Made by a program: the position numbers and the translations under genes
Assembly: GCA_016291135.1 (NCBI GenBank)
Contig: JAEFAE010000003.1
Span: 84,516-148,515, forward strand
Length of the DNA stretch: 64,000 nt
Direction of reading: 5' to 3'
From: Bacteroidales bacterium
GTDB taxonomy: Bacteria > Bacteroidota > Bacteroidia > Bacteroidales > F082
Notes under the pieces: model-generated
What the model was told of the DNA's origin: nothing
What the model saw: the letters and a program-made list of their open reading frames with translations, nothing else
Databases searched by the model: none
Part shown: one piece after another, positions 5,818 through 39,696 of the stretch
How the letters are laid out: every line of letters begins with the position of its first letter
How positions within the stretch are numbered: position 1 is the first letter of the stretch

Positions 5818-5844
5818 GTAGTATCACTTTAACGATTTAATACT

Positions 5845-8229: not shown

Positions 8230-8242
8230 AAAAGGAGAGAAA

Positions 8243-20018: not shown

Positions 20019-20027
20019 TTGTTTGAT

Positions 20028-22379: not shown

Positions 22380-22396
22380 TTGAAAATCAATATATT

Positions 22397-23692
22397 ATGA
22401 AAAAGTTATTTCTTATCCTAACGATGACGGGCCTCGCCATGACGGCCATGGCCCAGTCCCAACTTTCGACGGTCCGTGGCAAGACCAAGGACGGAAAGAA
22501 CCTCAAGGTCCAGTACTACAAGGGGACGGTCGAAGACGTGATCCAGTCCGTCAGCTACGATTTGGTGGACGAACTTCAGGCCAAGTCCAACAAACTCCAG
22601 GCAGACCTGGATGCGGCCAAAAAGGAGATCAAGAACCTGCAGGCAAGCGGCGGTGGGGCAGACGCTAACGAGTTGAAGAACCTCCGCAAGAAGGTGAAAG
22701 ACTACGAGAAGGAGAATGCCACCCTGACCAAGCAAATCAAAGAATTGAAAAATCAACTGGGCGGAGACGTGGTTGAGCCGTCCTCCGACAACGACCAGGC
22801 CGTGGCCGAAGCCCAGCGTCAGGTCGCCGAAAAGGACAAGGCCATTGCCGAGCTCAATACCGTGTTGGATGCCTGCAATGCCAAGGTCAAGGACATGGAA
22901 CGGCAGATTGGCGAGCTGAAAGGCGCCGTCCGTCCGCCCGCGAGTCCGGTGATCGGCGCCACCTTCGGGATGGGGCCTGCCTTCATCGGCAAGAGCACGC
23001 CGGACTATTGGGCCAAAAACGTGAAGCCGGCCATCTTGTTCGAGGTCTATTACGGCACGGGCAACCTGACCCCGAGCTTCCCGCTTTCGGTGGAGGCTGG
23101 ATTGGGCTTCCGCAACTTCAAGATGTCCGCTACATTGCCTGAATACACCACCGTCATCACGGGTGACGACAACGACGGCGATCCCTTCAAGGCCCACTAC
23201 AGCTTCAACAACCTGGAGGAGCGCTTGGGATTGACCTACCTTGACATTCCGGTGCGTGTGTGTGTGTCGCAACCCCTCAAGGACCGTGTCACGGTCTATG
23301 CCAAGGCGGGCTTGACCCCCTCCATCAAGGTGGGATCCAACTTCAACGGCAGCGGCACCTACAGCCTGTTCGGTTATTATCCGCAATGGGATGTCAACCT
23401 TCAGGACATTGAACCCCTTGGCTTTGGAGAGGACCTCGAGTGCTACGACGGTTTTACGCCTGAAGTGAAGTCCTTCGTCCTTTGGGGCAACCTCGCCTTT
23501 GGGGCCTACGTGCCGTTCAATGGCAGCCCCATCGAGCTGAATGCCGGCGTGAAGTTCGACTTCCCGTTGACTTCGTTCGGAACCGCCGCTACGGGCGACT
23601 TCATCCCGGGTACCCATGCCGCGGTGCTCGGCAACGGAGGCAAGGCCACCATTATGAGTCTGCAACTCGGCGTCGTTTACAACTTGAAATAA
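22397..23692 (+). CDS. Outer-membrane beta-barrel protein with an N-terminal periplasmic coiled coil
   Basis: 431-aa ORF with a signal peptide (MKKLFLILTMTGLAMTAMAQ). About 150 aa are coiled coil (KLQADLDAAKKEIKNLQ...KQIKELKNQL...). The C-terminal half has alternating-hydrophobic strands, including the LTYLDIPVRV motif typical of small Bacteroidota porin-family barrels. Confidence 0.55.
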   Translation: MKKLFLILTMTGLAMTAMAQSQLSTVRGKTKDGKNLKVQYYKGTVEDVIQSVSYDLVDELQAKSNKLQADLDAAKKEIKNLQASGGGADANELKNLRKKVKDYEKENATLTKQIKELKNQLGGDVVEPSSDNDQAVAEAQRQVAEKDKAIAELNTVLDACNAKVKDMERQIGELKGAVRPPASPVIGATFGMGPAFIGKSTPDYWAKNVKPAILFEVYYGTGNLTPSFPLSVEAGLGFRNFKMSATLPEYTTVITGDDNDGDPFKAHYSFNNLEERLGLTYLDIPVRVCVSQPLKDRVTVYAKAGLTPSIKVGSNFNGSGTYSLFGYYPQWDVNLQDIEPLGFGEDLECYDGFTPEVKSFVLWGNLAFGAYVPFNGSPIELNAGVKFDFPLTSFGTAATGDFIPGTHAAVLGNGGKATIMSLQLGVVYNLK

Positions 23693-23700
23693 TTCCGATC

Positions 23701-24909
23701 ATGGAAGAAATCGAAATCAAAGAATGGGGTAAAGAAGTGTTCGACCTCTTGTCGTGGTACAAGATGGACGTGGTCAAGAACGCCAAGGTGATGGTGGTCG
23801 GTGCCGGTGCGCTCGGCAACGAGGTGTTGAAGAACCTCGCCCTGTTTGGCGTAGGCAACATCTATATCGTGGACTTCGACACCATCGAATACACCAACTT
23901 GACCCGTTCGGTGCTCTTCCGCGAGGAGGATGCCGACAAGGGCTATTTCAAGTCGGAGGTGGCTGCCCGGAAGTTGCGTGAGATCAACCCCAACATCAAT
24001 GTGCAGTATATCTGCGGCAAGCTCAACACCGATGTGGGCTTGGGACTCTACCGGAAGATGGACGTGGTGGTCGGCTGTCTCGACAGCCGGCTGGCCCGTC
24101 TCCAGCTGAACCGGCTCTGCATGCGTGCCGACATCCCTTGGGTGGAGGGCGGCATGGAGAACCTCACCGGCAACGTCAGGGTCTTCAAACCCGGAGAGAA
24201 CTGCTACGAATGCGGCTTGACCGAAAACGCCAAGCAGAACATCTTCCAGCAGCTCTCCTGCGCTGGAGTAGCCCACCGCAACGAGAACGTGGGGCGTATT
24301 CCCACCACGCCGGTCATCGCCTCGATCATCGGCGCCGTTGAGACCCAGGAGGCCATGAAGCTTCTCCACAAGGAGGAGGTGCAGTCGGGCGTGTTCTCGA
24401 CCCTCATGGGCAAATGGTTCCACTATGAGGGCATGCACAACCACATCTCGGTGTATGACTCCCAAGCCTACTTTGAGGACTGTCCCTCGCACGAGTGCTG
24501 GAACGACGTGGTCAAGATCGCTGCCTTGAGCGCCGATACCCGGATCAACGATGTGTTCACCCTGATCCAGGAGACCCTGGGCGTGAAGGAAGTGGAGATC
24601 AACCTCCGCAACGACAAGTTTGTCGACATCATCGTTTCCAAGAACGACAACCAGCGTTTCACGCCCATGTTGCCCGAGTCCAAGATCTCGGACTACATCG
24701 ACTCGAACTACGACCTCTATACCCGTTCCCGTTCCGACCTTAACCAAAACGCCTACGAGAACATCAACGAGGAGTTCCCGTACCAGCGGCTCACCCTCCA
24801 CGAAATCGGCATCCCCTATTACGACGTCATCGAAGTGACCACCGAAAACGGGGTGTTCCATGTGGAGCTTACAGCGGATGAGGCACGTTTCCCGATCATT
24901 GTCAAATAA
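23701..24909 (+). CDS. ThiF/MoeB-family E1-like activating enzyme with a C-terminal extension
   Basis: 402 aa from the ATG at 23701. The track ORF 23482-24909 overlaps the upstream gene in another frame and is over-extended. Motifs: nucleotide loop VVGAGALGNE; DFDTIEYTNLTRS (arginine-finger region); NCYEC; and a crossover-loop Cys in QQLSCAGVA (codon 24259-24261), analogous to TCVEAGV of MoeB. About 130 aa lie beyond the adenylation domain and could be a UFD-like domain. Confidence 0.75.
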   Translation: MEEIEIKEWGKEVFDLLSWYKMDVVKNAKVMVVGAGALGNEVLKNLALFGVGNIYIVDFDTIEYTNLTRSVLFREEDADKGYFKSEVAARKLREINPNINVQYICGKLNTDVGLGLYRKMDVVVGCLDSRLARLQLNRLCMRADIPWVEGGMENLTGNVRVFKPGENCYECGLTENAKQNIFQQLSCAGVAHRNENVGRIPTTPVIASIIGAVETQEAMKLLHKEEVQSGVFSTLMGKWFHYEGMHNHISVYDSQAYFEDCPSHECWNDVVKIAALSADTRINDVFTLIQETLGVKEVEINLRNDKFVDIIVSKNDNQRFTPMLPESKISDYIDSNYDLYTRSRSDLNQNAYENINEEFPYQRLTLHEIGIPYYDVIEVTTENGVFHVELTADEARFPIIVK

Positions 24910-24917
24910 CTGTTGCC

Positions 24918-25691
24918 ATGTCTTATTTTGACCAAAACAGCCTTCAACAAGAGCTTTGCGCCGAACAGGTGCTTGCGGTGCATTTCCCCGACATCAAGGA
25001 GTGGACGGCCAACTATGGCAGCTTCTTCTCGAGGAACTACACGGGCGACTTGAAGGAATGTAACCCCAGGGATAAAAAGGTTTCCCTCTCCCGGAACGGC
25101 ATCTACGACATCCTTCCCGAGAAGATGTTCTTCGACCCTAACGAGTTGCGGAACAAGGAAAGCCGGGCCTTTGCACAACGGGTGGCCGAACTCTATGAGG
25201 AGGAAAGGAACATCCAGAAATATTTCCAGCCTTTCGACTCTTATTTCTTTAACCGGTCGCTAAACATCCGCTTGAATGTCAATAGGTTGGTGGACGATAA
25301 GGTCGAGATGATGCTCCGGCTGCTTTTCGACTACGACCTTCATGCGGAGAAGAATCCCTATATCCGCCTGCTGGCGCCTATGTTGCTTCAAGTAACCGAG
25401 TTGCGGTCCGACTTCGACCGGCTGTCGACGATGCTCGCCGCTATCATCGATTGTCGCGTGGACTACAAGATGCCGACCCAGGACCGTGTGCTCTTTACGG
25501 TGCATAAGTTGCAACTGAACAGCCGTGAGTACGCCGATTTCATGTTGCTGTTGAAGCCGTTGTTCGACTTTGTACAAGAGTGGTTCGTCCCCATGGAGAT
25601 GGACTGCGGCTATCAGGTGAAAGACTATCAGCAGCCTTTCGTGCTTTCCGACGATCGGGCTTTGGTATTGGACTACAACACACAGATTTGA
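24918..25691 (+). CDS. Conserved T6SS-module protein, positional candidate for TssG
   Basis: 257-aa ORF paralogous to 37547-38329 (HFPDIKEWTANYGSFFSRNYTGD... versus HYPFQREWIAHHKGIFTRNYADD...). It directly precedes the TssK-like, TssE and TssF genes in both modules. No other TssG candidate is present, and I recognise no TssG motif. Confidence 0.35.
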   Translation: MSYFDQNSLQQELCAEQVLAVHFPDIKEWTANYGSFFSRNYTGDLKECNPRDKKVSLSRNGIYDILPEKMFFDPNELRNKESRAFAQRVAELYEEERNIQKYFQPFDSYFFNRSLNIRLNVNRLVDDKVEMMLRLLFDYDLHAEKNPYIRLLAPMLLQVTELRSDFDRLSTMLAAIIDCRVDYKMPTQDRVLFTVHKLQLNSREYADFMLLLKPLFDFVQEWFVPMEMDCGYQVKDYQQPFVLSDDRALVLDYNTQI

Positions 25692-25715
25692 TTCTTTTAG
25701 ACAAAAAACCATACA

Positions 25716-26603
25716 ATGAATACAGATATCAGAATTGATTGGCGGTCGGGCATGGAGATCACTCCACAGACCTTTATCGACATGGAGAACAACATTTCAG
25801 AGAACCGCTTGCTGGTTCGCAAGATGATTGCCGCCAAGTCGTTCGGCGTCATCCCCAGAACGAAGTTCTCCATCAGCCATGAGCTGCTTAACGGAAGTCT
25901 GGTCCTCAAGCAGATCACCTGCGACGTGTTGCTGCCTGCCGGTCAGGTGGCCGTGGTGGAGACCAAGGCGCCCATCACCCTGGCCATCCCCGACAAGGAA
26001 GCCGATGAGCTCTACCTCACCCTAGAGGTGGGCGACCATCTCGTCACCTTTGAACGGGACGGCGTGCCGCATGTGGTCAACGAATACAAGTTCGACTTCA
26101 AGGCGCTTCCCGATGTGAGGACCCAGCAGCCGTTGCTCAAACTGGTCCGTGCCAACGAGGCTTGGACTGTTTATGAGAACTATGTCCCTCCGGTCATGAC
26201 GGTCAGGACTTCCGTGCCGTTGCTTGAGAAGCTCGACGCCTTGAAGCAATCGGCCGACAAGATCGTTACCCACGAACATGCCGACCTGATGGAAGACCCG
26301 GTGCTGGTGATGTTGCTCATCGACCAGCTGATGACCTTCTCGGCCGACGACTCCTCACGTGAGTTGGTGCTGCTGTGCAAGCGTATCGCCACGGCCTTGA
26401 GCTATGCCGTCATGAAACACAAGGTGGAGTTGCCCGCACCCAATATCATGGATGTGGAACCGTATCTGAATGCGTTCCAGCATTTTTTGGCCGACATCGC
26501 CGTCGCCATGAACGACCTGCAACCCAAGGTAGTGGAAGTGAAGGCCCCGGAACCCGAACCGGAACCGGAACCCGAACCGGATGAGTGGCTCCCGATGATT
26601 TAA
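25716..26603 (+). CDS. tssK: Short TssK-like baseplate protein with an acidic (PE)n tail
   Basis: 295-aa ORF. The N-terminus IRIDWRSGMEITPQTFIDMENNISENRLLVRKM resembles the TssK start (V.WsEGmfL.PQHFQQ.drY...). It is about 150 aa shorter than canonical TssK and ends EVKAPEPEPEPEPEPDEWLPMI. Confidence 0.5.
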   Translation: MNTDIRIDWRSGMEITPQTFIDMENNISENRLLVRKMIAAKSFGVIPRTKFSISHELLNGSLVLKQITCDVLLPAGQVAVVETKAPITLAIPDKEADELYLTLEVGDHLVTFERDGVPHVVNEYKFDFKALPDVRTQQPLLKLVRANEAWTVYENYVPPVMTVRTSVPLLEKLDALKQSADKIVTHEHADLMEDPVLVMLLIDQLMTFSADDSSRELVLLCKRIATALSYAVMKHKVELPAPNIMDVEPYLNAFQHFLADIAVAMNDLQPKVVEVKAPEPEPEPEPEPDEWLPMI

Positions 26604-26622
26604 CCTACTAACGCTTCTTGTT

Positions 26623-27102
26623 ATGTTCATCAGAAACCCTTTGCAACTGCGTTATCCCATTGTGGATCTAGACGGTAGCCAACTGAAAGGCTCTATCGAC
26701 GCCTTCTTGCGCCTGCTGATCGCCTCCAACAAGTACGACAGCATCGCCGATCAGGAGTTCGGATTCTGTCTGGAGGACTTCCGTTTCGAAGGCTTCAGTT
26801 CGGAACGGGCTGAGTTTTTGGAGCGGAAGACCGTGCCGCGAGACCGGTCGGAGAATACCGAATTGGCTGAGATCCGCAGTCCGTTGTATTCCAAAAGACT
26901 CGTCGGAAACAGCAAAAACGCCGACACGTTTGCCCGTGAATTGAAAAAGAGCATCGAGCGTTATGAACGAAGGCTCCGCGAGGTACAGGTGAACACGGAC
27001 TTCCAGAAAAACGGCCGGATCCTCCACATCATCGTGACCGGGAAGATCAACAATGCCGCCAATACCCTTTATTTTAACGAGTTTAATGTTGATGTTTGGT
27101 AA
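26623..27102 (+). CDS. tssE: Baseplate wedge protein TssE (gp25-like), copy 1
   Basis: 159-aa ORF directly upstream of tssF. It has a gp25/GPW-like start (LKGSIDAFLRLLIASNKYDSIADQEFGFCLEDFRFE). Paralog at 39230-39691. Confidence 0.6.
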   Translation: MFIRNPLQLRYPIVDLDGSQLKGSIDAFLRLLIASNKYDSIADQEFGFCLEDFRFEGFSSERAEFLERKTVPRDRSENTELAEIRSPLYSKRLVGNSKNADTFARELKKSIERYERRLREVQVNTDFQKNGRILHIIVTGKINNAANTLYFNEFNVDVW

Positions 27103-27117
27103 CAACACTTTAAGATT

Positions 27118-28872
27118 ATGACACAAGAAGATTACGATATTCAGGTACAGGTGGACAGCCTGATGCAGAAAGTCCTGGAGACCTGGAAACGCGAAGGGAA
27201 ATGGGACGGCAGCAACCCCAATTCGCCCTTTTACGGTTTCGAGAAAGACCCCTTGCTCCGTATCCTGATCACCGCCTTCGTATATCAGACCAATGGCCTG
27301 AAGGCCGATATCCAGAACTTGGAACGGGACGTGGTGAGCGATTTCCAAAACAGTATTCTGCCGTACCAGATCACCCAGGCCATTCCGGCCATGACCTTGA
27401 TCCAGACGGCCAAGAGCCCCGATGAGCCCGGCGACGTGTATTGCGACGAAACGACCGCCTTCCTGGTAAAGAAAGAATCGCTCCGCGTCAAGGAAGTGTT
27501 TCCTTTCCATCCGCTCTTTAAAGCCAAGATCATCGGGATGACCGTGAATGGTGTCACCAAGATTGCCAGCGACAAATGGAACGTCAACATCGACGTCGCC
27601 GACCAAAGCGCCGACCTCTCGAATTTCGGTTTCCTGATTACCGGCCTGCGCTACAGCAACGTGAATGTTTATTGGAACAACGAGAAGCTGCCCCTGATCC
27701 AACCCTGGGAGTTCGACCGCTTCCCCAAGATGGCCTGGTTCAACGACGCCAACATCGTCTTCAACAAGTCGATGCTCTTTGGCGGTGAAAGCAAATGGTA
27801 TGACCTCTGGGCCCAGATGAATGTGAACTACTACATGGTGGCTCCGACCTTCCGTCGTCCGATCGACTCCGATATGATCAATTTCGTGTTCGAGTTCTCG
27901 GGGATGTCGAAACCCTTCAATTTCGAAGCGGAAAACCTGGCCTTCAACTGCTTCCCGGCCGTCAACGTGCTGAAAAAAGACTTCCAGCTCTCCGGAGCGG
28001 AACCCATCGTCAAACTGACCAATGAAACGGATTACACCGATGAGGATGCCGAGCCGGTCAAAGGGGTCCGTTCTTCCGTGGATGAGAACAACCACGAAGA
28101 CTTCTTTATGAACCTGGTCATGAATCCGAATTCCTCGATCGACGACCTGGATCGCTTTAGCATCCGTCATTTCGGCTGCGAGCGGTTCAATCTGAATGCC
28201 TTGGTACGTCTGGCCAACGATCTCAGCTTGCGCTACGAGTCGGATTTCTACGCCTTCCAGAAGGTGCACAAGATGCAGAACACCGACAAGATCCGTCGTC
28301 TCAACATCGTACTGAAGGATGTGTTGGGGGTGATCCTGAACAACAAGGAGCCGCGTTCCGGCGTATATGCCATCCTGAAACATGGCAAGGGGGAGGGTAA
28401 TCCTGCGCCGATCCATCTCTCCGGTCTGTTCACCGACGGTGCCTACGCCAACGACATCGATGTGTTCAGCGACGTTTCGGGACCCAAGTGCTTCGACAAG
28501 AAGGAAACCAAGATGCTGTACAAGACCTTTGGCGGACGCGATGAGGTGGTCGATCGGGAGGAGAAGGCCATGTTGGCCAAGTACTATGCCCGTACCAACG
28601 ACCGTATCGTGACACGTGCCGACCTAAAGGCCTTCTGCAACCGTTATTTTGTCCAAATCGGTTATGCGGACGCCTTGCTCGACGTGAACAGTGTCATCGA
28701 ACGCCAAGAGGACGGCTTGTCCCGTCAGCACATCACCGTCCAGCTGAAAAACGAATTCGTGCGTGACCGCGAAGACGTGCCCATGATTGTCGACCGCTTG
28801 CGCAAACTGGTCGAGGTGCATAGCATGACCCACCTGCCGATCGTGGTGGATTACCTGGCGGTTGTGAGTTAA
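27118..28872 (+). CDS. tssF: Baseplate protein TssF, copy 1
   Basis: 584-aa ORF. The N-terminal KDPLLRILITAFVYQTNGLKADIQNLERDVVSDFQNSILPYQITQAIPAMTLIQ follows the TssF pattern (dP.v..LlE.fAyL...l...ld...p.....ll..l.P.yl.P.PS). Its size and its position after tssE also fit. Confidence 0.7.
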   Translation: MTQEDYDIQVQVDSLMQKVLETWKREGKWDGSNPNSPFYGFEKDPLLRILITAFVYQTNGLKADIQNLERDVVSDFQNSILPYQITQAIPAMTLIQTAKSPDEPGDVYCDETTAFLVKKESLRVKEVFPFHPLFKAKIIGMTVNGVTKIASDKWNVNIDVADQSADLSNFGFLITGLRYSNVNVYWNNEKLPLIQPWEFDRFPKMAWFNDANIVFNKSMLFGGESKWYDLWAQMNVNYYMVAPTFRRPIDSDMINFVFEFSGMSKPFNFEAENLAFNCFPAVNVLKKDFQLSGAEPIVKLTNETDYTDEDAEPVKGVRSSVDENNHEDFFMNLVMNPNSSIDDLDRFSIRHFGCERFNLNALVRLANDLSLRYESDFYAFQKVHKMQNTDKIRRLNIVLKDVLGVILNNKEPRSGVYAILKHGKGEGNPAPIHLSGLFTDGAYANDIDVFSDVSGPKCFDKKETKMLYKTFGGRDEVVDREEKAMLAKYYARTNDRIVTRADLKAFCNRYFVQIGYADALLDVNSVIERQEDGLSRQHITVQLKNEFVRDREDVPMIVDRLRKLVEVHSMTHLPIVVDYLAVVS

Positions 28873-30141: not shown

Positions 30142-31302
30142 ATGTCAGTTTCGGCAACCTTGCAGTTTGCAGAGTCAGGCGGAGGAATAACCGCTTTTCT
30201 TGCAAAGAACTTGAAAGACATCTATACGGTACTCGACCTTGACTATACGGTCGAAAAGCCTTTTGATAAGACAGGACATCCCTCGGGTGGTGCATACATT
30301 TCATTCATTAAGGTGACTGTTCGGGCTGCCAAGCAAATGGGGGCGCCTTTCCATGATTGGATCAACAAGCCTGACCAACAGATGGATGGCGTGATTAAGA
30401 TCTACGACTCAACCGGTATCATTTCTTCTACCATGCAGGATGTCACCGGTGCCGATCCTCTTGTGGACGTGGGCAATACGATGTTTGGTCTCCCAGAAGA
30501 TATGATGGAGGGGGCGATGAACCAGGCTATGGATCAAGCCTCGAATTACGACACCCGTGAACATGACCTGTACGACGAGCTTGAACATAAGGATTTGTTG
30601 GAGCAAGCTGATGACTATAAAATCAAGGTTATGGCGAATGACAGCGATGATGTGATCAAAGACAAACTACGTAAGACAAAAAAGGAGCTTGATACGCTTG
30701 ATACAAACGATGACGCATTGAGAGCGTTCATAAAGGAACACCCGGAAGTGGGATGGCCGAACAAAGAAAAGGAGACCGCGGAAATGGACCTTGAAGCCTT
30801 GAAACAGTATGCTGCAGATAACAAATTGAATGATGCGCCCCAAAAAAAGGACAATGAAACGGATGAAGAATATCTGAAGCGTTATCGGGCTTATGTGAAA
30901 GATGATATGGAATTCAAGGCGGCGAAACAAATGGTGAAGGATCGGCCAGATAAAGTTAAGAAGGCTGTTGGGGACGATGTGGAGCAACAAATCAAAAATG
31001 AAGAGGTGCTTGCTCCTGCATACCAAACCGCCGACAAACTGAAAAAACAAACGGCATCCACTGCAAAGGGTATTGCTAAGGAATTCGTCAAAAGAACCAT
31101 GGAATGCGCTCGCAGTATTACTTTCGAGAATGCCTATTGCGTCAGTTTAAAAGAGCATTTTACCAACAGACCTGATTCCCAAGGAAAACTCGACGCTTCC
31201 TATCCATGGATCCTCGAAATCGGTATCAAACCGACAACCGTGAAGGTTACGGGTGAGCAGCTTGGGCCAAAGGCCATTGGTGGCGAAATTGAGTTTAAGT
31301 AG
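30142..31302 (+). CDS. Hcp-family protein with a ~230-aa charged insertion inside the fold
   Basis: 386-aa ORF. Residues ~25-95 (VLDLDYTVEKPFDKTGHPSGGAYISFIKVTVRA...FHDWINKPDQQMDGVIKIYDS) and ~330-386 (ITFENAYCVSLKEHF...YPWILEIGIKPTTVKV) align to the two halves of Hcp1. A Lys/Asp/Glu-rich segment sits between them, where Hcp1 has only a short loop. Confidence 0.6.
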   Translation: MSVSATLQFAESGGGITAFLAKNLKDIYTVLDLDYTVEKPFDKTGHPSGGAYISFIKVTVRAAKQMGAPFHDWINKPDQQMDGVIKIYDSTGIISSTMQDVTGADPLVDVGNTMFGLPEDMMEGAMNQAMDQASNYDTREHDLYDELEHKDLLEQADDYKIKVMANDSDDVIKDKLRKTKKELDTLDTNDDALRAFIKEHPEVGWPNKEKETAEMDLEALKQYAADNKLNDAPQKKDNETDEEYLKRYRAYVKDDMEFKAAKQMVKDRPDKVKKAVGDDVEQQIKNEEVLAPAYQTADKLKKQTASTAKGIAKEFVKRTMECARSITFENAYCVSLKEHFTNRPDSQGKLDASYPWILEIGIKPTTVKVTGEQLGPKAIGGEIEFK

Positions 31303-31326
31303 GGGAAACGATAGGAGACCTTTGCC

Positions 31327-33627
31327 ATGACAATGTGTTTGATAAACAAGTTTGAAATCAATGGCGTGCGCATTGATGATAGTTTCAAGAAAAGACCTGA
31401 ATGGGTTCCGGTTAACGACCAGAATGACCCTCAATACCTTGAAGGCTACTCGGTAATGGACTGCTCCTTGACTAAAGAGTTGCTGAAACCCAACGTGTTC
31501 TCGTTTACGATGCGGCATCAAAAAGCCCAGGGGAAAAGCTTTGCTATTATAGACAATCTCATGGGCAAATCAGTAACATGTCAAGTGTATACGTTGTTTG
31601 AGGGGAATTCGAACTCATCAGTCGTTTTTTCCGGTACCATTGCTAAGGTCGGGGTGAAAGGTGCTGTTGTATCCTGCATCGCCTATAGTGAAGACGCCAA
31701 GTTGCAGGGTTCTCCCAAGTGTCGGTGTTTTTGCGGAAAGAAGCTATCGGAAATTGTCGATGCCGTTGTGAAAGATGATGTTTATCATATTAAAAAGACA
31801 ATTAGTATTCATTCCTCCTTCGATACGCTAACCCTGCCCTATATCGTCCAATACAATGAAAGCGATTACGATTTCCTTGTAAGGTTGGCAAAGCGCTTCG
31901 GGGCTTTTTTCTATTACGATCAGGATGGAGTTATAAAAAGGCTCTATTTCGGTATAATCCCTGGCTCCAATCAAGTGGATTTTGACTTGAGCGGCACGCC
32001 AAATGCAAAAAGTGTCAGCTATGAGCTCATGGCGGTAAACCCTAATTTCAGGTATATGTCGTATTTTGATGAAAAAGACAAATACCTGCAAACTGCTGTT
32101 CCCGATTTGGGTGGACTTGGTTCCACAGGCCTTATGGGTAAGGCAGTAGCTGGTTCCCGTCCACTTGTTGCTAACTATGCCCATTTTGTGGACGAACCCA
32201 ACAGACTGCCTAAGACGCCCAACAATGATATGTTAAAACTATTCAGTGAAGCAGCTTTGCGCAGTATGTCTGACAGTATGGTAACCTGTACCTTCATTAG
32301 CTATCGTTTTGATATTCATGTTGGATCTGTGGTGAAGATCGATAGCAATGATCCGATGCTGGTGACTGCAGTCCATCTCACCTGGGATTGCAATGGATCG
32401 CCTCAAAATGAGGTCACGGCTGTTGTTCTTCCCAAAACCGACTTTGTAAAAGACAAGCTATTTGCTCCTTATATGGACCCTTACGCCTATCCCAAGTCAA
32501 GCGCCTTACGCGCTGTGGTGGTCAACAACATCGATGAGAAGAAAATGGGGCGGGTACAAGTGCGCTTTGCTTGGCAACCAGCTGACATGGCTAACGATGA
32601 AAAGCAGTTGTTGCCTTGGATCCGCATTGCTCAACCCTACGGGGGTGGCAAAAAAGACAAAGAACAAGGTTGTTACATTCTGCCGGAAATTGGAGAGGAG
32701 GTCATGGTTGGATTCGAACACGACAACCTGGAAAAGCCCTATGTGATAGGTGCATTGTATCATGACTCGGATACGGCCGACAACGTTCAAATGCCGGATC
32801 CTGCATGGGTGGAAACCGACCAAGCCAACAAGAACAACGAGGTGAAAGCCTTCCGTACCAAGAAAGGCCATACCATTGAGTTCCACGACGTGGATGGCAA
32901 TGACAACTACGGTTTCATCCGCATCTATGGCAAAAACCAGTCGGAAAAGAACTATGACATCTACCTTTCCTCCAACCCAGTCAAAAACGGAGATGCTTTT
33001 TACAAAGTGAATGGTCCCAAGGAAGATGCGGAGGCAAAAAAGGAGATCGGATTGCAAGAGTATGAGGCGAAAGAGCTTCGTATCCTGGTGAGGAGCAATG
33101 GCGGAGATATTGTATTGGATGCCGGTGATGGGGATATCATCATGAATGCCAAGAACATTCGCGTCAATGTCGCCGGCAATCGTACCACAGCGATACAAGA
33201 CGACGACATCGTTAGTATCGGGGGAAACCGGTTGGTAGACGCGGGTAACGATTCCTTGATGCTACGTGGAAAACAAACCGTTATGGTACATGGAGAATTG
33301 GATGCGGAGTACAAAGCCGCGGTCAATTTGGTCGCTGACCGGGATCTTAAGGCCGACGTCAAACGAACAATGAAACTCATGGCATCGGATCTTGAGGCTG
33401 AAGCCAGCCAGACGGCAAAGGTGAAAACCAACTCCGGCATTGAACTGAATGGGGGTATGAAGGTCGATATACAGGCTACCAACTTCAAAGCCGAAGGGCG
33501 GGCCGATGCTACTTTGAAAGGCACCGATATTACCGTTGATGCCCTCGTGGCTGCTACGATAAAGGCAACCGATATCACGCTCGATTCCGAAGCGGGCACC
33601 CGAAAAGGATTGTGGACAGACATGTAA
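31327..33627 (+). CDS. tssI: T6SS spike protein VgrG (TssI), copy 2
   Basis: 766-aa ORF with YIVQYNESDYDFLVRLAKRFGAFFYYDQDG, AVVVNNIDEKKMGRVQVRFAWQ, WIRIAQPYGGG and PEIGEEVMVGFEHDNLEKPYVIG motifs. It also has C-terminal beta-helix-like repeats. Confidence 0.85.
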   Translation: MTMCLINKFEINGVRIDDSFKKRPEWVPVNDQNDPQYLEGYSVMDCSLTKELLKPNVFSFTMRHQKAQGKSFAIIDNLMGKSVTCQVYTLFEGNSNSSVVFSGTIAKVGVKGAVVSCIAYSEDAKLQGSPKCRCFCGKKLSEIVDAVVKDDVYHIKKTISIHSSFDTLTLPYIVQYNESDYDFLVRLAKRFGAFFYYDQDGVIKRLYFGIIPGSNQVDFDLSGTPNAKSVSYELMAVNPNFRYMSYFDEKDKYLQTAVPDLGGLGSTGLMGKAVAGSRPLVANYAHFVDEPNRLPKTPNNDMLKLFSEAALRSMSDSMVTCTFISYRFDIHVGSVVKIDSNDPMLVTAVHLTWDCNGSPQNEVTAVVLPKTDFVKDKLFAPYMDPYAYPKSSALRAVVVNNIDEKKMGRVQVRFAWQPADMANDEKQLLPWIRIAQPYGGGKKDKEQGCYILPEIGEEVMVGFEHDNLEKPYVIGALYHDSDTADNVQMPDPAWVETDQANKNNEVKAFRTKKGHTIEFHDVDGNDNYGFIRIYGKNQSEKNYDIYLSSNPVKNGDAFYKVNGPKEDAEAKKEIGLQEYEAKELRILVRSNGGDIVLDAGDGDIIMNAKNIRVNVAGNRTTAIQDDDIVSIGGNRLVDAGNDSLMLRGKQTVMVHGELDAEYKAAVNLVADRDLKADVKRTMKLMASDLEAEASQTAKVKTNSGIELNGGMKVDIQATNFKAEGRADATLKGTDITVDALVAATIKATDITLDSEAGTRKGLWTDM

Positions 33628-33653: not shown

Positions 33654-34034
33654 ATGGCAGGCGACGCAACAACCGTATGTATGGGCGCGACAATGAAATG
33701 CAGCATGGGGATGACTCCGGCGCCTCTCGTGGTGATTCCACCTCGGAACTCGATGATTCAGGGTAGGTTTGTGGCCAATATCATGGATAACAAACCAATG
33801 GTCAACATCCCCACTTTCGGGATGTGCCGTTCCCTGGCCAACCCCAGCGTGGCTTCAGCCACCTCGGCCGCTTGCGGTGTCCTGACGCCCATGCCCTGCA
33901 TCCCCAGCACCGTGGCACCTTGGGCACCAGGCAACACACAGGTGCTTACGCAAGGCGCCCCTACACTGACCGTGACCAGCAAACTCGTATGCATGTGGGG
34001 TGGGGTGATTGATTTTGTTAACTCGGGGCATTGA
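33654..34034 (+). CDS. Stand-alone DUF4280 (PAAR-like) spike-tip protein
   Basis: 126-aa ORF immediately after vgrG2: VCMGATMKCSMG...NIPTFGMCRS...PCIPSTVAPWAPG...KLVCMWGGVIDF. It matches the DUF4280 Cys/Gly/Pro pattern as I remember it. Confidence 0.75.
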   Translation: MAGDATTVCMGATMKCSMGMTPAPLVVIPPRNSMIQGRFVANIMDNKPMVNIPTFGMCRSLANPSVASATSAACGVLTPMPCIPSTVAPWAPGNTQVLTQGAPTLTVTSKLVCMWGGVIDFVNSGH

Positions 34035-34096: not shown

Positions 34097-34411
34097 ATGG
34101 AAGACTTCTACGTTCACATCCGGTATCGGAACAAATCCATCCGGTTCAAGATCTCCGATCCCAACTATGAGATGGAGCAACTCATGAACAGCTTGAAGAA
34201 CGCCTCTGACAAAGAGGGGAAGCGCTTTTTCAACCTACCGGAGATGATTGACTTCACGCCCACGGATTATTATTTTGGGAAGATGGATGAAACCACCGGC
34301 CAATGCATCATCCTTCAACCGCGTGTTGGGAAAACCCACATGAAGATGTCGGACTATAACATCCAGAACGGGGACACCCTGGAGGTCGTTCCCGATCCCA
34401 TTGCCGGTTAA
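34097..34411 (+). CDS. Ubiquitin-like (beta-grasp) protein ending in Gly-stop, copy 2
   Basis: 104-aa ORF ending ...GDTLEVVPDPIAG followed by TAA. It has the same length and the same C-terminal DPIAG as copy 1. Confidence 0.7.
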   Translation: MEDFYVHIRYRNKSIRFKISDPNYEMEQLMNSLKNASDKEGKRFFNLPEMIDFTPTDYYFGKMDETTGQCIILQPRVGKTHMKMSDYNIQNGDTLEVVPDPIAG

Positions 34412-35189: not shown

Positions 35190-35204
35190 AAGAAAGGATT
35201 GCGC

Positions 35205-37547
35205 ATGAAACGAATCATCCTCTTAGGAATGTTGCTGTTAATGGTCATGCCGATGATGCTGGCCCAGGAGTTGGTGCTGGATTATCCCAAGTTCCAGCCA
35301 AGTCTGGATACGGTTTTTGTGGATTTCAAGGTCGTTGATGACGGAACGAAACTGAACCTCGGTTCCATCGACAAGGGAGCCCTCTCCATCTCGGAAACCG
35401 GCTACAACGGCCTTGACGATGGCACCACTTTGGTGGACGTCTTGGACATCCGTAACTATGATCCCGATTATGAAGCAGGTAACTATTCCATGATCGTTTT
35501 GGCCGATCGTGCCGCCACCAGCGCGCAGATGGAGGAGCAACGACAGGCCATCACGGAACTATACAAGGGACTCCCCAAAGCGCATTTTTACCTGTCTGCC
35601 ATGGACGAAGTGCGCACCCCCACAACGGAGATCAAGGATTTTTACCAGCTGACGCAGTGGTTTGACAGTTGTTTCAACATGCCGTCTGCCAAGGAAAAGT
35701 TCATCTATAAGGCACTGGCTTCCGTGTTGGAAGAGATCTCGAAAACGGATACCCATGACTTTTATCCTGAACTGGAATACAATCCCAATCTGAAAAACGA
35801 TACCAAAAAGGTGGTTGTAATGCTGACCAACGGCGTTTACAAGAAAGCGGATGGCAGCTATATCGGAGGGGAGGATTTCTTCCGGATCAAGATGACGCTG
35901 ATCTCTGAGCAGGACCTGAGAGAAAACACACAAGTGAGCTATGTGTTTTTGGGTGACCGCTTTATCGAAGAGGACTTCCACCATGAGATCCAATATGTTT
36001 TCAAGGAAGGTGACCGTTATGACTCGGACTTTGACTTCCAAACCCTTAAGGAGGCACTGGTCATGCACCCCGACCCGAAAGCCATGGATTACCGCATGGT
36101 CATCACCAACCTTGCGGAGAAGTTATACGACGGTCAGAAGATTACCTTGTATGCCTACCTGCATCAGGGTGATGTGGATGCCATGGGTTCCCGATCCTTT
36201 ACCAAAGGATGCCTGATCGACCCCATGCCCGTACATGACAGCCTCTCGTTACGTCTTACCCGTATCGCCCAATGCCTGATCTTGGCCCTGATCGTCATCG
36301 GATTGCTGTGGCTGTTCTTCCGACTTCTGTATCCAAGATGGAGACATGCTCTTTTCAAAAGGAAATACGTTAAGGAGTTCGACAAGGCCAATGTGTTGCC
36401 TACCCGCGCCAGCGACTATGTGGGACAGAAGTGCTACTATTGCAAGGATGCCTTCCAGCCGGGCGATGAAATAGTGACCCGCTGTGAGCACACCATGCAC
36501 TACGACTGCTGGAAGGAGAATGGTTATCAGTGTCCCGAGTTCGGCAAGGAATGTGATAACGGCGATTATTTCTATAACGAGGATCATCGTTGGGATCGCC
36601 GGAATGCGCCTTATTTCCTGAAATGGTTGGTTGCCGGTTGTTTGGCAGGGTTGGTCAGCTGGCTGGTGTTCCGCCTGGCAGTGCATAACAATCTCTTCCA
36701 TGGCCTCATCAGCGATATGGTGATGCTCTTTCAAAAAGTCGGTTTGGATGCTTCAGGACAAGCCTTTGCCGATAAGATCCACGACATGCTCTTCTTCGGG
36801 GTCATTGTTGGTGGAATTGTTACCCTGGTGGCTTCCTGTCTGTTAGAACGTCGGAAGAAAACCGCCCAAAGGGTGGGGGTCATCATCGGACGTGTCTTAT
36901 GCGGGATGCTGGTCGGCTTTGCTGCTTTCCTTGTTGGCAGTTGGGTTGCCTTGGCTACGGGAAAGGACTACAACAGCTTTCTTGTCGATCTTATTCCTTG
37001 GCTCCTGATGGGGGCTGGATTGGGTCTGGTGATCGCCTACCGCACCGAGGTGCCCCTCAAACGTGCCGTTTTGTGTGGCTTCCTCTTTGCCATGCTCGGC
37101 TTCGGTGTTCTTTACATGTTCAGCTTTGAAAACAGCAACTTCGAGTTCCATTTCCTCGGTTTGTTGACCAGCATGCTGTGTCTGATTGGATTGATGGTCT
37201 TTGCGGGAGGCTTGTATGCCTGCATAGCGCAGCGGGAACAGGTCTCAAAACGGTATTTCCTCCATATCGACGGCAACCTCAAGAGCCGAGATGTGGCGAT
37301 TTACAAATGGATGAACCGTGTTGGCGGCTACCGTGTAGTGACCATCGGCAGGTCGGACCGCTGTTACATCGACATGGATTGGGACAACACGGAAGGACTT
37401 GAAGGCGTTCAAGCCGAGGTCTATATTGAGAATGACGTGCCGTATCTCAAGAACATGAGAACCAATGAAGCCACCAGGCTCTACCATGGCAGTTCGTTTA
37501 GGGTTGGAAAGACTGTGTTCACTTATCTTGAAAAAGACCGGATCTGA
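35205..37547 (+). CDS. Polytopic membrane protein with RING-H2-like finger and C-terminal FHA-like domain, copy 2
   Basis: 780 aa from the ATG at 35205; the track ORF starts at an upstream TTG. It has the same architecture as 20028-22379. All eight candidate metal ligands are conserved (CYYCKDAFQPGDEIVTRCEHTMHYDCWKENGYQCPEFGKEC, 36432-36554). The C-terminus is VTIGRSDRCYIDM...FRVGKTVFTY. Confidence 0.65.
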   Translation: MKRIILLGMLLLMVMPMMLAQELVLDYPKFQPSLDTVFVDFKVVDDGTKLNLGSIDKGALSISETGYNGLDDGTTLVDVLDIRNYDPDYEAGNYSMIVLADRAATSAQMEEQRQAITELYKGLPKAHFYLSAMDEVRTPTTEIKDFYQLTQWFDSCFNMPSAKEKFIYKALASVLEEISKTDTHDFYPELEYNPNLKNDTKKVVVMLTNGVYKKADGSYIGGEDFFRIKMTLISEQDLRENTQVSYVFLGDRFIEEDFHHEIQYVFKEGDRYDSDFDFQTLKEALVMHPDPKAMDYRMVITNLAEKLYDGQKITLYAYLHQGDVDAMGSRSFTKGCLIDPMPVHDSLSLRLTRIAQCLILALIVIGLLWLFFRLLYPRWRHALFKRKYVKEFDKANVLPTRASDYVGQKCYYCKDAFQPGDEIVTRCEHTMHYDCWKENGYQCPEFGKECDNGDYFYNEDHRWDRRNAPYFLKWLVAGCLAGLVSWLVFRLAVHNNLFHGLISDMVMLFQKVGLDASGQAFADKIHDMLFFGVIVGGIVTLVASCLLERRKKTAQRVGVIIGRVLCGMLVGFAAFLVGSWVALATGKDYNSFLVDLIPWLLMGAGLGLVIAYRTEVPLKRAVLCGFLFAMLGFGVLYMFSFENSNFEFHFLGLLTSMLCLIGLMVFAGGLYACIAQREQVSKRYFLHIDGNLKSRDVAIYKWMNRVGGYRVVTIGRSDRCYIDMDWDNTEGLEGVQAEVYIENDVPYLKNMRTNEATRLYHGSSFRVGKTVFTYLEKDRI

Positions 37548-38329
37548 TGGAACCACATGATATCAAAGCGGAAACCTGGGTAGCGGCGCATTATCCTTTT
37601 CAAAGGGAATGGATTGCGCACCATAAAGGCATTTTTACCAGGAATTATGCGGATGATATGCGTTCCTGCGATCCGCAAACGACTGTAGTGGAATTGTCTC
37701 GTGACGGCCTTTATGAGATCCTTCCCAATAAGTTGTTTTTCAATGGCAGTGAGTTGCAGGGCATCAATCAGAGTGATTTTGAGTGGACGCATCGGGTGCT
37801 GAAACAGCGTGTGGAACGCATCAAGACGGTGTTTCTGCCGTTCGACACCTCATTTTTCAACCATTCTTTGGCCTTGGAACAGGAACTGAATGCCCACTTG
37901 GCCGATAAAACCAACGTTCTCCTGAAGGCTTTTATAGGGGAGGACTACTCCAACGACCGGAATGCTTACATTCGCAGGATGGCTCCCATGGTGCTACAGG
38001 CCGCCCACCTTCGTGGGAAATATGCTGTGCTGTGCAAAATCATCACCTGTGTTTTGGGATCTTCGACCCATTACATCAAGAAAGGGAATAGGATCCGGTT
38101 TGTGGTGAACCGTCCCAACTTGGAACGAAAGGCGTTCTTGAACTATCTTGAGGAACTGAAACCCTTTTTCCAATGGGTGGAGGAGTGGTTCATCCCTTTC
38201 GACTTCCAATGTGAGTTCAAAGTGAGGGACTATGGACGCGACGACCGTTTTACGGGTCCAAACAAACTGTTACTCGACTACAACGCCACCCTTGGCAACC
38301 AACCTCATAAAGCATCAACCAAACCATGA
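37547..38329 (+). CDS. Conserved T6SS-module protein, positional TssG candidate, copy 2
   Basis: 260-aa ORF whose start overlaps the upstream stop by 1 nt. Paralog of 24918-25691. Confidence 0.35.
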   Translation: MEPHDIKAETWVAAHYPFQREWIAHHKGIFTRNYADDMRSCDPQTTVVELSRDGLYEILPNKLFFNGSELQGINQSDFEWTHRVLKQRVERIKTVFLPFDTSFFNHSLALEQELNAHLADKTNVLLKAFIGEDYSNDRNAYIRRMAPMVLQAAHLRGKYAVLCKIITCVLGSSTHYIKKGNRIRFVVNRPNLERKAFLNYLEELKPFFQWVEEWFIPFDFQCEFKVRDYGRDDRFTGPNKLLLDYNATLGNQPHKASTKP

Positions 38330-39219
38330 ACAAGGATATTAGAATCAACTGGAATGTCGGGATGGAACTCCTTCCAGAGACTTTCATCCATTTAGAGAAT
38401 CAATTGGCCGAATACCGTCAACTGTTGCGTAAAGTTCAGGCTTCCAAACAGTTCGGGCTGATCCCGGGATCGGCTTTCAAGACGATGGTGTCGGTTGAGG
38501 GTGACGCAGTTTCCGTGGGAGAGGTAGACTGCCAAGCGCTCTTGGAAGACGGCGGCATGGTGGATTACCATCGCGACGCCCGTTGGCAACTGACGATTCC
38601 AGGATCATCGGGTAGTTATTATCTCGCGCTTGCTCCGTCGGAGAAGACACGAGAATATGAATTAGACGAGGTTCCATTCGTCGAGAATGAATATGAATTC
38701 ACGCTCCGTACCTTGGAACAGCTCCCTGGCCACATGCCCATTGCCAAGGTAATCCATGAGAACGGTGCATGGGAATTGCAGGAGGACTACATCCTCCCGG
38801 TCATCGCTATGCAAGACGCCCCCTTGTTGATGGAGATGGAGAAAGCCATTCTACAGTTGGTCCGACAGGTTCTCAACCACGAGAAATTCACATACCTCCG
38901 AAACCACGACGTGATGCGGATGTTTGCAGAAGAGATGGAGTGTCTTGGGATGAACCAAAGTCCCCGAGACTTCGTGACGTTGTGCCGCCGTTTCGTTCGC
39001 TTGCTTTCCTATGTTATTCAGGATGCACCGGTACAGCTTCCGGAATACAATCCTTACGACCTCCAACTGTTTCTCACCGCGGTTTGTGGATTCCTTATCC
39101 AAGCCATCGAGCGCCTTCCTATGGTGGAGGTGGTGGAATACCAGCCGGTGCCAAAACAAGAATCCAAGCCGGAATCCGAGTCAGAACCCGAACCCGAAGA
39201 CGATTGTCCCATCCTTTAA
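38326..39219 (+). CDS. tssK: Short TssK-like baseplate protein with an acidic tail, copy 2
   Basis: 297-aa ORF with an ATGA overlap to the upstream gene. The N-terminus is IRINWNVGMELLPETFIHLENQLAEYRQLLRKV. The C-terminus is QPVPKQESKPESESEPEPEDDCPIL. Confidence 0.5.
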   Translation: MNKDIRINWNVGMELLPETFIHLENQLAEYRQLLRKVQASKQFGLIPGSAFKTMVSVEGDAVSVGEVDCQALLEDGGMVDYHRDARWQLTIPGSSGSYYLALAPSEKTREYELDEVPFVENEYEFTLRTLEQLPGHMPIAKVIHENGAWELQEDYILPVIAMQDAPLLMEMEKAILQLVRQVLNHEKFTYLRNHDVMRMFAEEMECLGMNQSPRDFVTLCRRFVRLLSYVIQDAPVQLPEYNPYDLQLFLTAVCGFLIQAIERLPMVEVVEYQPVPKQESKPESESEPEPEDDCPIL

Positions 39220-39229
39220 TTGAAAAGCC

Positions 39230-39691
39230 ATGTACGTCAAGCGACCGATCATCATGAAATATCCTACCGTGGCCAAGGATGCGTTGAAAAAGTCCATTGA
39301 CGCTTTCCTTGACCTGCTAATCACCTCGGGAAAAGACAGTTTCAAGGCAGATGCGGATTTCGGCTTCGCCTTGGAGGATTTCCGTTTTGAGATCTACAGT
39401 CCTGAGACCGGTATGTTCCATGGGGATGTCCGAAAACAGAAGAAAGATATCATAGGGACCATCGAAGATCCCATGCAAAAATACAGGATCAAGGGTTCCA
39501 GTGTCAATACCGAAACTTTTGCGGGACATCTTAAGAATTCCATCGAGCAGTATGAGCATCGGTTGAAAAATGTAGAAGTGGCCATGGATTTCCTGGCACG
39601 AGGCACGGTGTTGTTGGTTTCGGTAAACGGCATCATGGACGATGGGTACGACTCGCCCTACACTTACTATAACAAAATCCAAATCTGGTAA
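39230..39691 (+). CDS. tssE: Baseplate wedge protein TssE (gp25-like), copy 2
   Basis: 153-aa ORF. LKKSIDAFLDLLITSGKDSFKADADFGFALEDFRFE is paralogous to copy 1. Confidence 0.6.
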   Translation: MYVKRPIIMKYPTVAKDALKKSIDAFLDLLITSGKDSFKADADFGFALEDFRFEIYSPETGMFHGDVRKQKKDIIGTIEDPMQKYRIKGSSVNTETFAGHLKNSIEQYEHRLKNVEVAMDFLARGTVLLVSVNGIMDDGYDSPYTYYNKIQIW

Positions 39692-39696
39692 ACAGC

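Follow-up and report, generated by a model that had tools for sequence, protein, structure and literature searches.

An Hcp-family protein with a domain-sized insert in its predicted stacking loop, paired with a second VgrG gene in a Bacteroidales type VI secretion locus

Specialised ("evolved") Hcp (TssD) proteins of type VI secretion systems (T6SS) that carry C-terminal toxin extensions (Hcp-ET) were reportedly described by Ma et al. in 2017. In phages and contractile injection systems (CIS) the tube fold is specialised by position, as in the tube initiators gp48/gp54, or decorated, as in tail tube proteins with Ig-like appendages; to our knowledge, such additions are terminal or lie on the outer surface of unsheathed tubes. 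In Bacteroides fragilis GA3, extra Hcp paralogues of low similarity accompany the major Hcp (PMC13213661, PMC13035841; structure 9vnd). We analysed a 64,000-nucleotide stretch of a Bacteroidales genome (contig JAEFAE010000003.1, positions 84,516 to 148,515; "the window" means this whole stretch) and within it one gene, at 30142-31302 on the forward strand, whose 386-residue product is very probably an Hcp that is split by a large internal insert. We call this protein the inserted Hcp.

The inserted Hcp shares with the Hcp/TssD proteins of Bacteroidota T6SS(iii) (6bdc, 7yw0) the family profile, the predicted barrel and a place in a T6SS locus next to vgrG, but it has approximately 233 extra residues in L4,5, the loop between strands beta4 and beta5. 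Like Hcp-ET it carries an extra covalent domain and is encoded with spike genes; unlike Hcp-ET it has this domain internally (residues 91-323), the domain belongs to no recognisable toxin family, and no immunity gene follows. It also differs from the phage and CIS additions as we know them in that the insert would sit in a stacking-face loop of a sheathed system. With the minor Hcps of B. fragilis it has in common that it is a low-similarity paralogue beside a major Hcp, that it sits in a compositionally distinct, variable cassette, and that a short additional helix lies between beta1 and beta2 (insertion G11-S25 in B. fragilis Hcp1, PMC13213661; predicted at residues 15-25 here); chain 9vnd_B aligned with our model at Z 10.2. 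In B. fragilis, however, a separate helical effector occupies the lumen, whereas the helical module is here part of the Hcp chain itself. The Hcp insertions mentioned for B. fragilis are the short helix G11-S25 in Hcp1 and an N-terminal stretch, M1-L13, in Hcp2 (PMC13213661). A domain-sized internal (L4,5) insert in an Hcp was not found in the literature searched, subscription journals and supplements excepted.

The reading frame of the gene is open throughout. It begins 59 nt 3' of a gene for a 383-residue protein (p383), and its stop lies 24 nt 5' of the second vgrG gene of the window (vgrG2). Scanned as a whole, the product matched PF17642 (TssD/Hcp) with 52.5 bits against a cut-off of 25.8, and the match was split into two stretches. 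Scanned alone, residues 1-91 matched family positions 1-75 (E 8.1e-9) and residues 315-371 matched positions 71-120 (E 7e-5), the latter at 23.1 bits and thus slightly below the cut-off; the middle piece of 231 residues matched no Pfam family above threshold. Pairwise BLASTP comparison with the ordinary Hcp1 of the window was non-significant (E 1.9-3.1), and comparison of the two halves with the ordinary Hcp2 was marginal (E 0.006 and 0.014). Both halves aligned to a second Hcp that lacks the insert and is encoded in another genome of the genus (L011:1468-1866), residues 28-85 to its residues 14-71 (E 4e-7) and residues 324-353 to its residues 84-113 (E 1e-4), so that approximately 238 residues in the inserted Hcp replace 12 in this relative.

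A full-length model was made with AlphaFold2 from a 36-row family alignment (mean predicted local distance difference test, pLDDT, 74.7). It has strands at residues 4-11, 27-38, 52-62 and 81-88 with a helix at 69-75, no strands over residues 89-323, and then strands at 324-339, 356-363, 366-374 and 377-385. When the full model was aligned, without pre-filtering, to 48,161 representatives of the PDB, the best fold match was B. fragilis Hcp5 (7yw0_A; Z 13.4, root-mean-square deviation (rmsd) 2.6 Å, 117 of 120 residues), which spans model residues 3-386; Hcp1 of enteroaggregative Escherichia coli (EAEC; 4hkh_A) aligned over 135 residues at Z 13.0. All 30 chains with a Z of at least 8 were Hcps, Hcp fusions, or tail or baseplate chains of phages and contractile injection systems, and the model barrel also matched many tail tube proteins at Z 7-10. 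Foldseek with the full model gave Hcp1 of F. johnsoniae as its top match (6bdc, E 9.2e-4). On this model the two flanks together fold as one Hcp barrel, and profile, predicted fold and T6SS context all place the protein in the Hcp/TssD family. We are highly confident that the gene encodes a genuine Hcp of Bacteroidota type, its barrel split by the insert, within a VgrG2 cassette.

A preliminary description of this DNA had proposed an Hcp with an internal domain of approximately 230 residues, and the split PF17642 match and the barrel model of the flanks confirm it. The flanks do not fail to fold as an Hcp barrel, in prediction, which had been raised as a possible objection, and the domain is an interruption rather than a C-terminal extension, as had been said, the chain ending in barrel strands (356-385). 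The proposed alignment of both termini to Hcp1 of the window stands at the level of profile and fold, not pairwise. The insert bounds given earlier, approximately 30430-31130, were close to those used here (30412-31110), and the charged, helical-looking character ascribed to the insert agrees with its composition, reported below, and with the absence of predicted strands.

The insert lies within L4,5, a loop that in relatives is a short turn (about 8-12 residues). The order of elements in the model (helix 69-75, strand 81-88, insert, strand 324-339) can be set beside that of EAEC Hcp1, in which helix 67-78 and beta4 (82-89) are followed by the overhang loop L4,5 (Ile91 to Gly96) and beta5 (PMC3925092). 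In EAEC Hcp1, L4,5 and the C-terminus are at the hexamer-hexamer interface, the N93W/S158W substitutions abolish stacking and tube formation, and the G96C/S158C pair cross-links rings head to tail (PMC3925092). Judged by this topology and numbering, the insert would be on a stacking face of the ring and not on its outer wall. The initial expectation of an internal insertion that projects from the tube ring was thus right about the insertion, but the projection would be from the stacking loop rather than from the outer wall.

Confidence in the full model varies along the insert: residues 91-140 and 290-317 have pLDDT below 50, and residues 141-289 are mostly helical with values of roughly 85-96. 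A model of the insert alone (45-row alignment) reproduced the same helices with pLDDT 78.6 and a predicted template modelling score (pTM) of 0.66, and exceeded pLDDT 90 over insert residues 50-200. The insert is accordingly predicted to consist of a conserved N-terminal arm of approximately 50 residues of low predicted order, a helical core, modelled with high confidence, with two helix-extended-helix (HeH) units, and a conserved C-terminal arm helix of approximately 50 residues. The insert of the window contains 16% K+R and 23% D+E (net charge -16), and the inserts of all 36 family members are net acidic (-4 to -20). Insert length ranges from 108 to 247 residues, compared with 138-167 for the flanks. 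Essentially every one of the 36 members has residues 91-180 and 291-323, which show moderate conservation; the stretch 181-290 is optional and has an occupancy of 0.28-0.91. Three residues in the insert are invariant (D142, E146, R177) and five are nearly so (Q99, D167, K301, E321, A323).

The helix pairs of the two HeH units are predicted at 149-158/169-188 and 217-226/241-267. The units are homologous to each other (hhalign, 94.9% probability, E 4.5e-8 over 35 columns), with 31 of the 36 members passing the 60%-occupancy filter of the unit 2 sub-alignment. With VIA, unit 1 superposed on the Rho N-terminal domain (1a62_A; Z 5.4, rmsd 1.8 Å, 44 residues) and on the LEM domain of emerin (2odc_I; Z 5.1, 45 of 47 residues), both weak scores in the chance range for helical motifs, and at low Z also on the SAP domains 2do1, 1zrj, 9i5y, 6h9u and 7bu5 and on the C-terminus of T4 endonuclease VII. 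The insert resembles SAP, LEM, Rho_N and Ish1 domains in having two predicted units of approximately 40 residues, at 1.8-2.2 Å from Rho_N, LEM and SAP structures but with weak scores; unlike these families it is acidic rather than basic, and the window protein itself has no Pfam match to Ish1, SAP or Rho_N at E <= 0.1. At that threshold Ish1 matched 13 of the 36 members, with P0014 (32.5 against 26.6) the only one above the cut-off among five scores inspected, and Rho_N matched 2 of 36. We therefore call the units HeH-like and assign the insert to no HeH family. The literature search found no paper on an Hcp combined with a SAP domain.

Searches with the insert as a whole returned no known family. 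The wide VIA search gave a best Z of 5.5 and no whole-domain match, the HeH sub-motif alone recurring; Foldseek with the insert-only model gave nothing meaningful (best E 1.1 in the PDB and 0.16 among the viral models of BFVD). A PDB sequence-profile search with the insert alignment recovered Hcps through the flank columns (6bdc, E 6.7e-6) and nothing below E 1 through the insert columns, and the ESM Atlas had no usable match to insert residues 141-305. Pfam, PDB profile, Foldseek (PDB, BFVD) and VIA revealed neither a toxin or enzyme nor any known adaptor family in the insert. Word-seeded searches, which may miss distant relatives, found no free-standing copy of the insert, the one match among proteins of 30-211 residues being a 155-residue fragment with 99% identity, and no otherwise fused copy among proteins of 677-2000 residues; among proteins of 212-676 residues the insert family retrieved PF17642 proteins exclusively. 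Two further candidate origins were rejected: an intein or mobile insertion, for which Pfam gave no such family match, and a recent foreign acquisition of the insert, whose GC content at third codon positions (GC3, 0.50) equals that of the flanks (0.49-0.52).

A large protein search yielded 36 clusters at 90% identity (that of the window and 35 others) with lengths of 262-402 residues, all of them PF17642 proteins and from several sources; an exhaustive phmmer search of 1.84 billion representatives yielded no more than 23 clusters at 50% identity, fragments among them. Two further loci were found in 185,579 species genomes, and a metagenome scan added 7 contigs carrying full-length copies and 5 with insert-less relatives. 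Among 121 genomes sampled from the same genus, 20 had any TssD match, and in 6 of these 20 (G000, G150, G175, G598, G603, G629) a split TssD match lay in a single open reading frame (ORF) of 269-404 residues. The inserted-Hcp profile matched 5 of 201 genomes sampled from the family (3 inserted, 2 insert-less), all of one genus. In 401 genomes of the order, 11 carried TssD, and the protein of the window was the only within-frame split match among 44 rows. Two other architectures were seen in the order sample: a 281-residue frame with two TssD matches, that is, a tandem Hcp-Hcp (G517:C317:12-782, minus strand), and frames of 299-1116 residues on several contigs of G226 that match TssD positions 35-128 only.

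This distribution bears on the explanation that the split gene is an artefact, whether an assembly chimera, a frameshift fusion or a meaningless low-complexity expansion. The window comes from a draft genome (2.6 Mb, 60 contigs, 83% complete) and the insert is compositionally biased, which would fit such an origin. However, the frame is uninterrupted, the split architecture recurs in the 35 other clusters, in two other species-level genomes, in 7 metagenome contigs and in 6 of the 20 Hcp-bearing genomes of the genus, the insert holds invariant residues, its core is modelled at pLDDT above 90, and its GC3 matches that of the flanks. We give an artefact virtually no credence. The concern, raised at the outset, that a gene fusion or assembly error had produced the insertion is ruled out by the same architecture in the other clusters and in independently assembled contigs, which in practice leaves no place for either an assembly error or a recent fusion.

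By Pfam and NCBIfam the window is taken up by a long T6SS locus of Bacteroidota type, encoded on a single strand (Table 1), which also contains two sets of TssK-like and TssE-like genes. Twelve copies of the inserted Hcp were compared (the window, L006, L007, L010, L014 with two copies, and L015-L020). A VgrG2-type ORF begins 12-24 nt downstream in 11 of them, and the twelfth (L019) stops at the contig end. On the metagenome contig L014 (1653-8811) the Hcp-VgrG2 pair occurs twice in tandem and is followed by a single PAAR-like gene. The p383 gene, whose product has no Pfam or NCBIfam match above threshold, is absent directly upstream only in the second L014 copy and in L010; in L010, which G598 resembles, the genes before the inserted Hcp are those for TssC and the major Hcp. 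In the second-module loci, identity to the window is 34-46% for the inserted Hcp and 40-46% for VgrG2, compared with 66-73% for p584, 71-74% for TssE and 80-93% for the PAAR-like protein. GC3 is 0.50-0.53 in the inserted Hcp-VgrG2 pair and 0.40-0.51 in Hcp2-VgrG1 and the next (387-aa) gene, against mostly 0.73-0.82 in the upstream core genes (0.68 in TssE, 0.75 in the major Hcp) and 0.59-0.68 in the genes downstream of the pair. Since the two genes are adjacent in 11 of 12 copies, are duplicated in tandem, and have lower identity and GC3 than their neighbours, each spike gene travels together with a minor Hcp of its own, the two forming a unit that is distinct in composition and diverges fast. 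The suggestion that the inserted Hcp is specific to the second module is thereby borne out, as a strict pairing with a VgrG2-type spike gene. The lower GC3 of the inserted Hcp compared with the major Hcp (0.50 against 0.75) hints at a different expression or origin. VgrG2 and the PAAR-like protein have no extra domain by Pfam or NCBIfam, and no cognate immunity gene lies directly downstream of the inserted Hcp, where vgrG2 is 12-24 nt away in 11 copies.

How a protein of this shape could be used is constrained by the dimensions of the tube. An Hcp ring is about 40-45 Å high. Its outer and inner diameters are 80 and 40 Å (PMC3925092), and the inner diameter of the sheath, 80-100 Å, just accommodates the tube (PMC10433429). 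Because the sheath just fits an 80 Å tube, a module of approximately 26 kDa on each protomer could not be housed outside the sheathed tube; by our estimate six such inserts also exceed the 40 Å lumen of one ring, and the inserted Hcp should therefore not be a bulk tube subunit. A bulk role is also unlikely because in EAEC Hcp1 a bulky group placed in L4,5 prevents rings from stacking. We hypothesize that the inserted Hcp acts in low copy, in one of two placements. It could form a dedicated ring at the tube end, most plausibly next to its cognate VgrG2, where its arms, 50 and approximately 30 residues long, would allow the helical modules to fill the cavity of the hub and the lumen beside it. 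Alternatively, it could contribute minority protomers to a mixed hexamer, whose lumen would then hold one or two inserts. Such mixed rings have a parallel in B. fragilis, where minor Hcps form Hcp1-Hcp2 heterohexamers (PMC13213661) and a ring of Hcp2(4)-Hcp3(2) holds a single helical effector, Bte1, with C-terminal helices that extend to the interface between rings (PMC13035841). In either placement the insert would be a built-in, covalently attached passenger or adaptor without enzymatic activity and would be expelled together with the spike. A non-enzymatic role is favoured because no catalytic family is found, no immunity gene can follow, and the arms and HeH unit 1 are the best conserved parts. 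The account as a whole, comprising the inserted Hcp, its VgrG2 cassette and a low-copy passenger or adaptor, is the best explanation we have and in our judgement has an even chance of being correct; the low-copy, spike-associated mechanism taken by itself we advance tentatively, as somewhat short of that.

Several observations weigh against the low-copy, spike-associated passenger. In B. fragilis the cargo-loaded minor Hcp2-Hcp3 ring failed to bind VgrG in pull-downs, in which the major Hcp does bind (PMC13035841), and for this reason the adjacency of the vgrG gene is no proof that the protein sits near the spike. Second Hcps without an insert likewise lie directly upstream of vgrG in L011, L012, L021, L022 and L024; since they hold the same place, vgrG adjacency is a property of the lineage and not of the insert, and the inserted form therefore derives from a lineage of vgrG-adjacent second Hcps. 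The review PMC10433429 does not state which face of the ring (L4,5 or C-terminal) meets VgrG. The volume argument depends on the assumed ring height, the low-pLDDT linkers (91-140, 290-317) leave the placement of the insert relative to the barrel unpredicted, and the HeH assignment of the window protein rests on weak structural scores (Z approximately 5) and on homologues. A complex prediction of the insert (232 residues) with full-length VgrG2 (766 residues), run without controls, gave a score of 0.00 and a mark of 0.32 and is uninformative either way. A more specific form of the same mechanism, which we regard as improbable, would make the inserted Hcp a T6SS analogue of a phage tube initiator that is at once, in a single chain, a plug of the lumen: a one-sided first ring whose six HeH modules fill the VgrG2 hub cavity and the first stretch of lumen and are fired as built-in cargo, with the ubiquitin-like, E1, E2 and RING set of the locus perhaps modifying the conserved Lys. 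If this were true, each spike type would have its own matched ring, and the pair would be expected to move, duplicate and diverge as a unit.

The reading to be weighed most closely against a non-enzymatic passenger is that the insert is itself an effector domain, either toxic or able to modify a target, making the protein an evolved Hcp with an internal passenger, for example a nucleic-acid-binding HeH module that acts in prey. Many domains of the HeH, SAP, LEM and Rho_N types are binders of DNA or RNA, toxin extensions on Hcps are already established, no obvious effector other than the insert is seen in the second module, where neither VgrG2 nor the PAAR-like protein carries an extra domain by Pfam or NCBIfam, and insert length is the most variable part of the cassette. 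These arguments are countered by the fold, profile and family searches, which returned no toxin or enzyme family, although a new toxin could escape them, by the net acidic charge of 36 of 36 inserts, which is unlike typical DNA-binding modules, and by the spacing to vgrG2 (24 nt here, 12-24 nt in relatives), which leaves no room for an immunity gene. Moreover, the barrel-adjacent arms and HeH unit 1 are the most conserved regions, suggesting a binding or structural role over a diversifying toxin. We consider an effector unlikely. That same conservation of the arms would suit a purely structural element of the tube end, a cap, terminator or checkpoint ring that blocks stacking or binds baseplate or cap components. 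L4,5 determines stacking, a Trp there stops tube formation in EAEC (PMC3925092), and the two paralogous baseplate gene sets of the locus make a module-specific adaptor conceivable. HeH-like matches to phage and diffocin baseplate chains (9ndy_M, Z 5.3; 9cuy_P, Z 5.0; 8v3w_N, Z 4.3) point the same way, but a Z of 4-5 over approximately 42 residues is at noise level for helical motifs. In addition, G175 and G598 have the inserted Hcp beside the major Hcp without a second-module context, so it is not tied to a duplicated baseplate, and a variable, optional mid-insert would be unusual in a precise joint. A purely structural role is in our view quite unlikely.

A further explanation takes the Lys-rich exposed insert for a regulatory handle, a substrate or docking site for ubiquitin-like conjugation genes of the locus. 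These include a ThiF-type E1 (23482-24909; PF00899, E 3.2e-53), a weak E2-like UQ_con match (15861-16463, E 0.0034), RING-like matches in two paralogues of approximately 780 residues (20019-22379 and 35199-37547), and a 104-residue ORF (34097-34411, plus strand) whose counterparts in the 6 related loci that hold it are 84-92% identical and all end in VVPDP[IV]AG-stop; the insert for its part contains the nearly invariant K301. Yet the connection is one of proximity, and a conjugation target is not inferable from sequence. The ubiquitin-like assignment of the 104-residue ORF is sub-threshold (ubiquitin, E 0.095), and none of these genes was seen in the 3.5-kb context of the inserted Hcp of G175. 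A regulatory handle accordingly seems very unlikely to us. The ORF itself is flanked by the PAAR-like gene and the gene after it, ends in ...VVPDPIAG-stop in the window, and has its sub-threshold matches to ubiquitin and Rad60-SLD at residues 69-98. Together with the E1, E2-like and RING-like genes it looks, from sequence, like a set for ubiquitin-like conjugation that has its place within a T6SS locus; the literature search found no paper linking type VI secretion in Bacteroidota with ubiquitin-like and ThiF genes.

The inserted Hcp raises the structural question of how a sheathed tube tolerates or exploits a 26-kDa module at the ring-ring interface, and it would naturally support fixed positions or a mixed composition for some Hcp rings. 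If L4,5 can host a folded domain, as the model suggests, this is relevant to the engineering of cargo into Hcp. The fixed Hcp-VgrG cassette suggests co-evolving specificity of spike and first ring. The family is small and confined to uncultured Bacteroidales, and its practical reach is limited until a member is expressed.

Table 1. Positions, within the window, of the inserted Hcp gene, its predicted segments and the neighbouring T6SS genes
Feature	Coordinates	Strand	Evidence or remark
Whole gene, specialised Hcp/TssD with internal insert (386 aa)	30142..31302	+	ORF; PF17642 52.5 bits in two stretches; Hcp fold Z 13.4
Hcp barrel N-half, residues 1-90: beta1, extra helix 15-25, beta2, beta3, helix 69-75, beta4 81-88 (predicted)	30142..30411	+	PF17642 1-75; model
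Insert N-arm, residues 91-140	30412..30561	+	In all members; Q99 nearly invariant; pLDDT <50
HeH unit 1, residues 141-186, predicted helix-extended-helix	30562..30699	+	pLDDT >90; D142, E146, R177 invariant; VIA Z 4.3-5.4
HeH unit 2, residues 209-258, variable mid-insert (predicted)	30766..30915	+	hhalign to unit 1; Ish1 matches of homologues fall here
Insert C-arm, residues 270-323, predicted long helix back to beta5	30949..31110	+	291-323 in all members; K301, E321, A323 conserved
Hcp barrel C-half, residues 324-386: beta5 and three more strands (predicted)	31111..31299	+	PF17642 71-120 at residues 315-371; model strands
ClpV	296-2791		Pfam/NCBIfam
TssC	3427-4797		Pfam/NCBIfam
Hcp1, ordinary, 130 aa	4857-5249		Pfam/NCBIfam
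Hcp2, ordinary, 162 aa	5329-5817		TssD match over residues 1-119 only; C-terminal tail of ~40 residues unmatched
VgrG1	5845-8229		Pfam/NCBIfam
p383, 383 aa	28931..30082	+	Directly upstream in 10/12 copies; signal-peptide-like hydrophobic N-terminus by eye
VgrG2-type spike	31327..33627	+	Phage_base_V, Phage_GPD; NCBIfam VgrG models; 24 nt downstream of inserted Hcp
PAAR-like tip protein (DUF4280)	33654..34034	+	PF14107 E 2.9e-33; 80-93% identical in related loci

Around the cassette, 20019-28872 and 35199-41340 contain two paralogous gene sets in the same order, namely a RING-like gene, a gene for approximately 258 residues, a TssK-like gene, a TssE-like gene and a gene for 584 or 547 residues. 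The first three pairs cross-match at 26-40% identity in related loci, and the TssE-like and 584/547-aa pairs were matched by order, size and family hints only. The arrangement is kept in L006, L007, L015, L016 and L020, and it looks like a duplicated baseplate module that flanks the inserted-Hcp/VgrG2 cassette. The window has two low-GC3 islands (5329-9406 and 30142-33627), a pattern consistent with exchangeable spike cassettes. In the first of these, the 387-residue product of 8243-9406 matches DUF4280 only at its C-terminus (280-386), its N-terminal part of approximately 280 residues having no family match; it may be a specialised tip protein of the first module. Amid the T6SS locus, 14119-15468 encodes PKD-like domains and a C-terminal sorting domain of the type IX secretion system (TIGR04183, E 3.7e-10).

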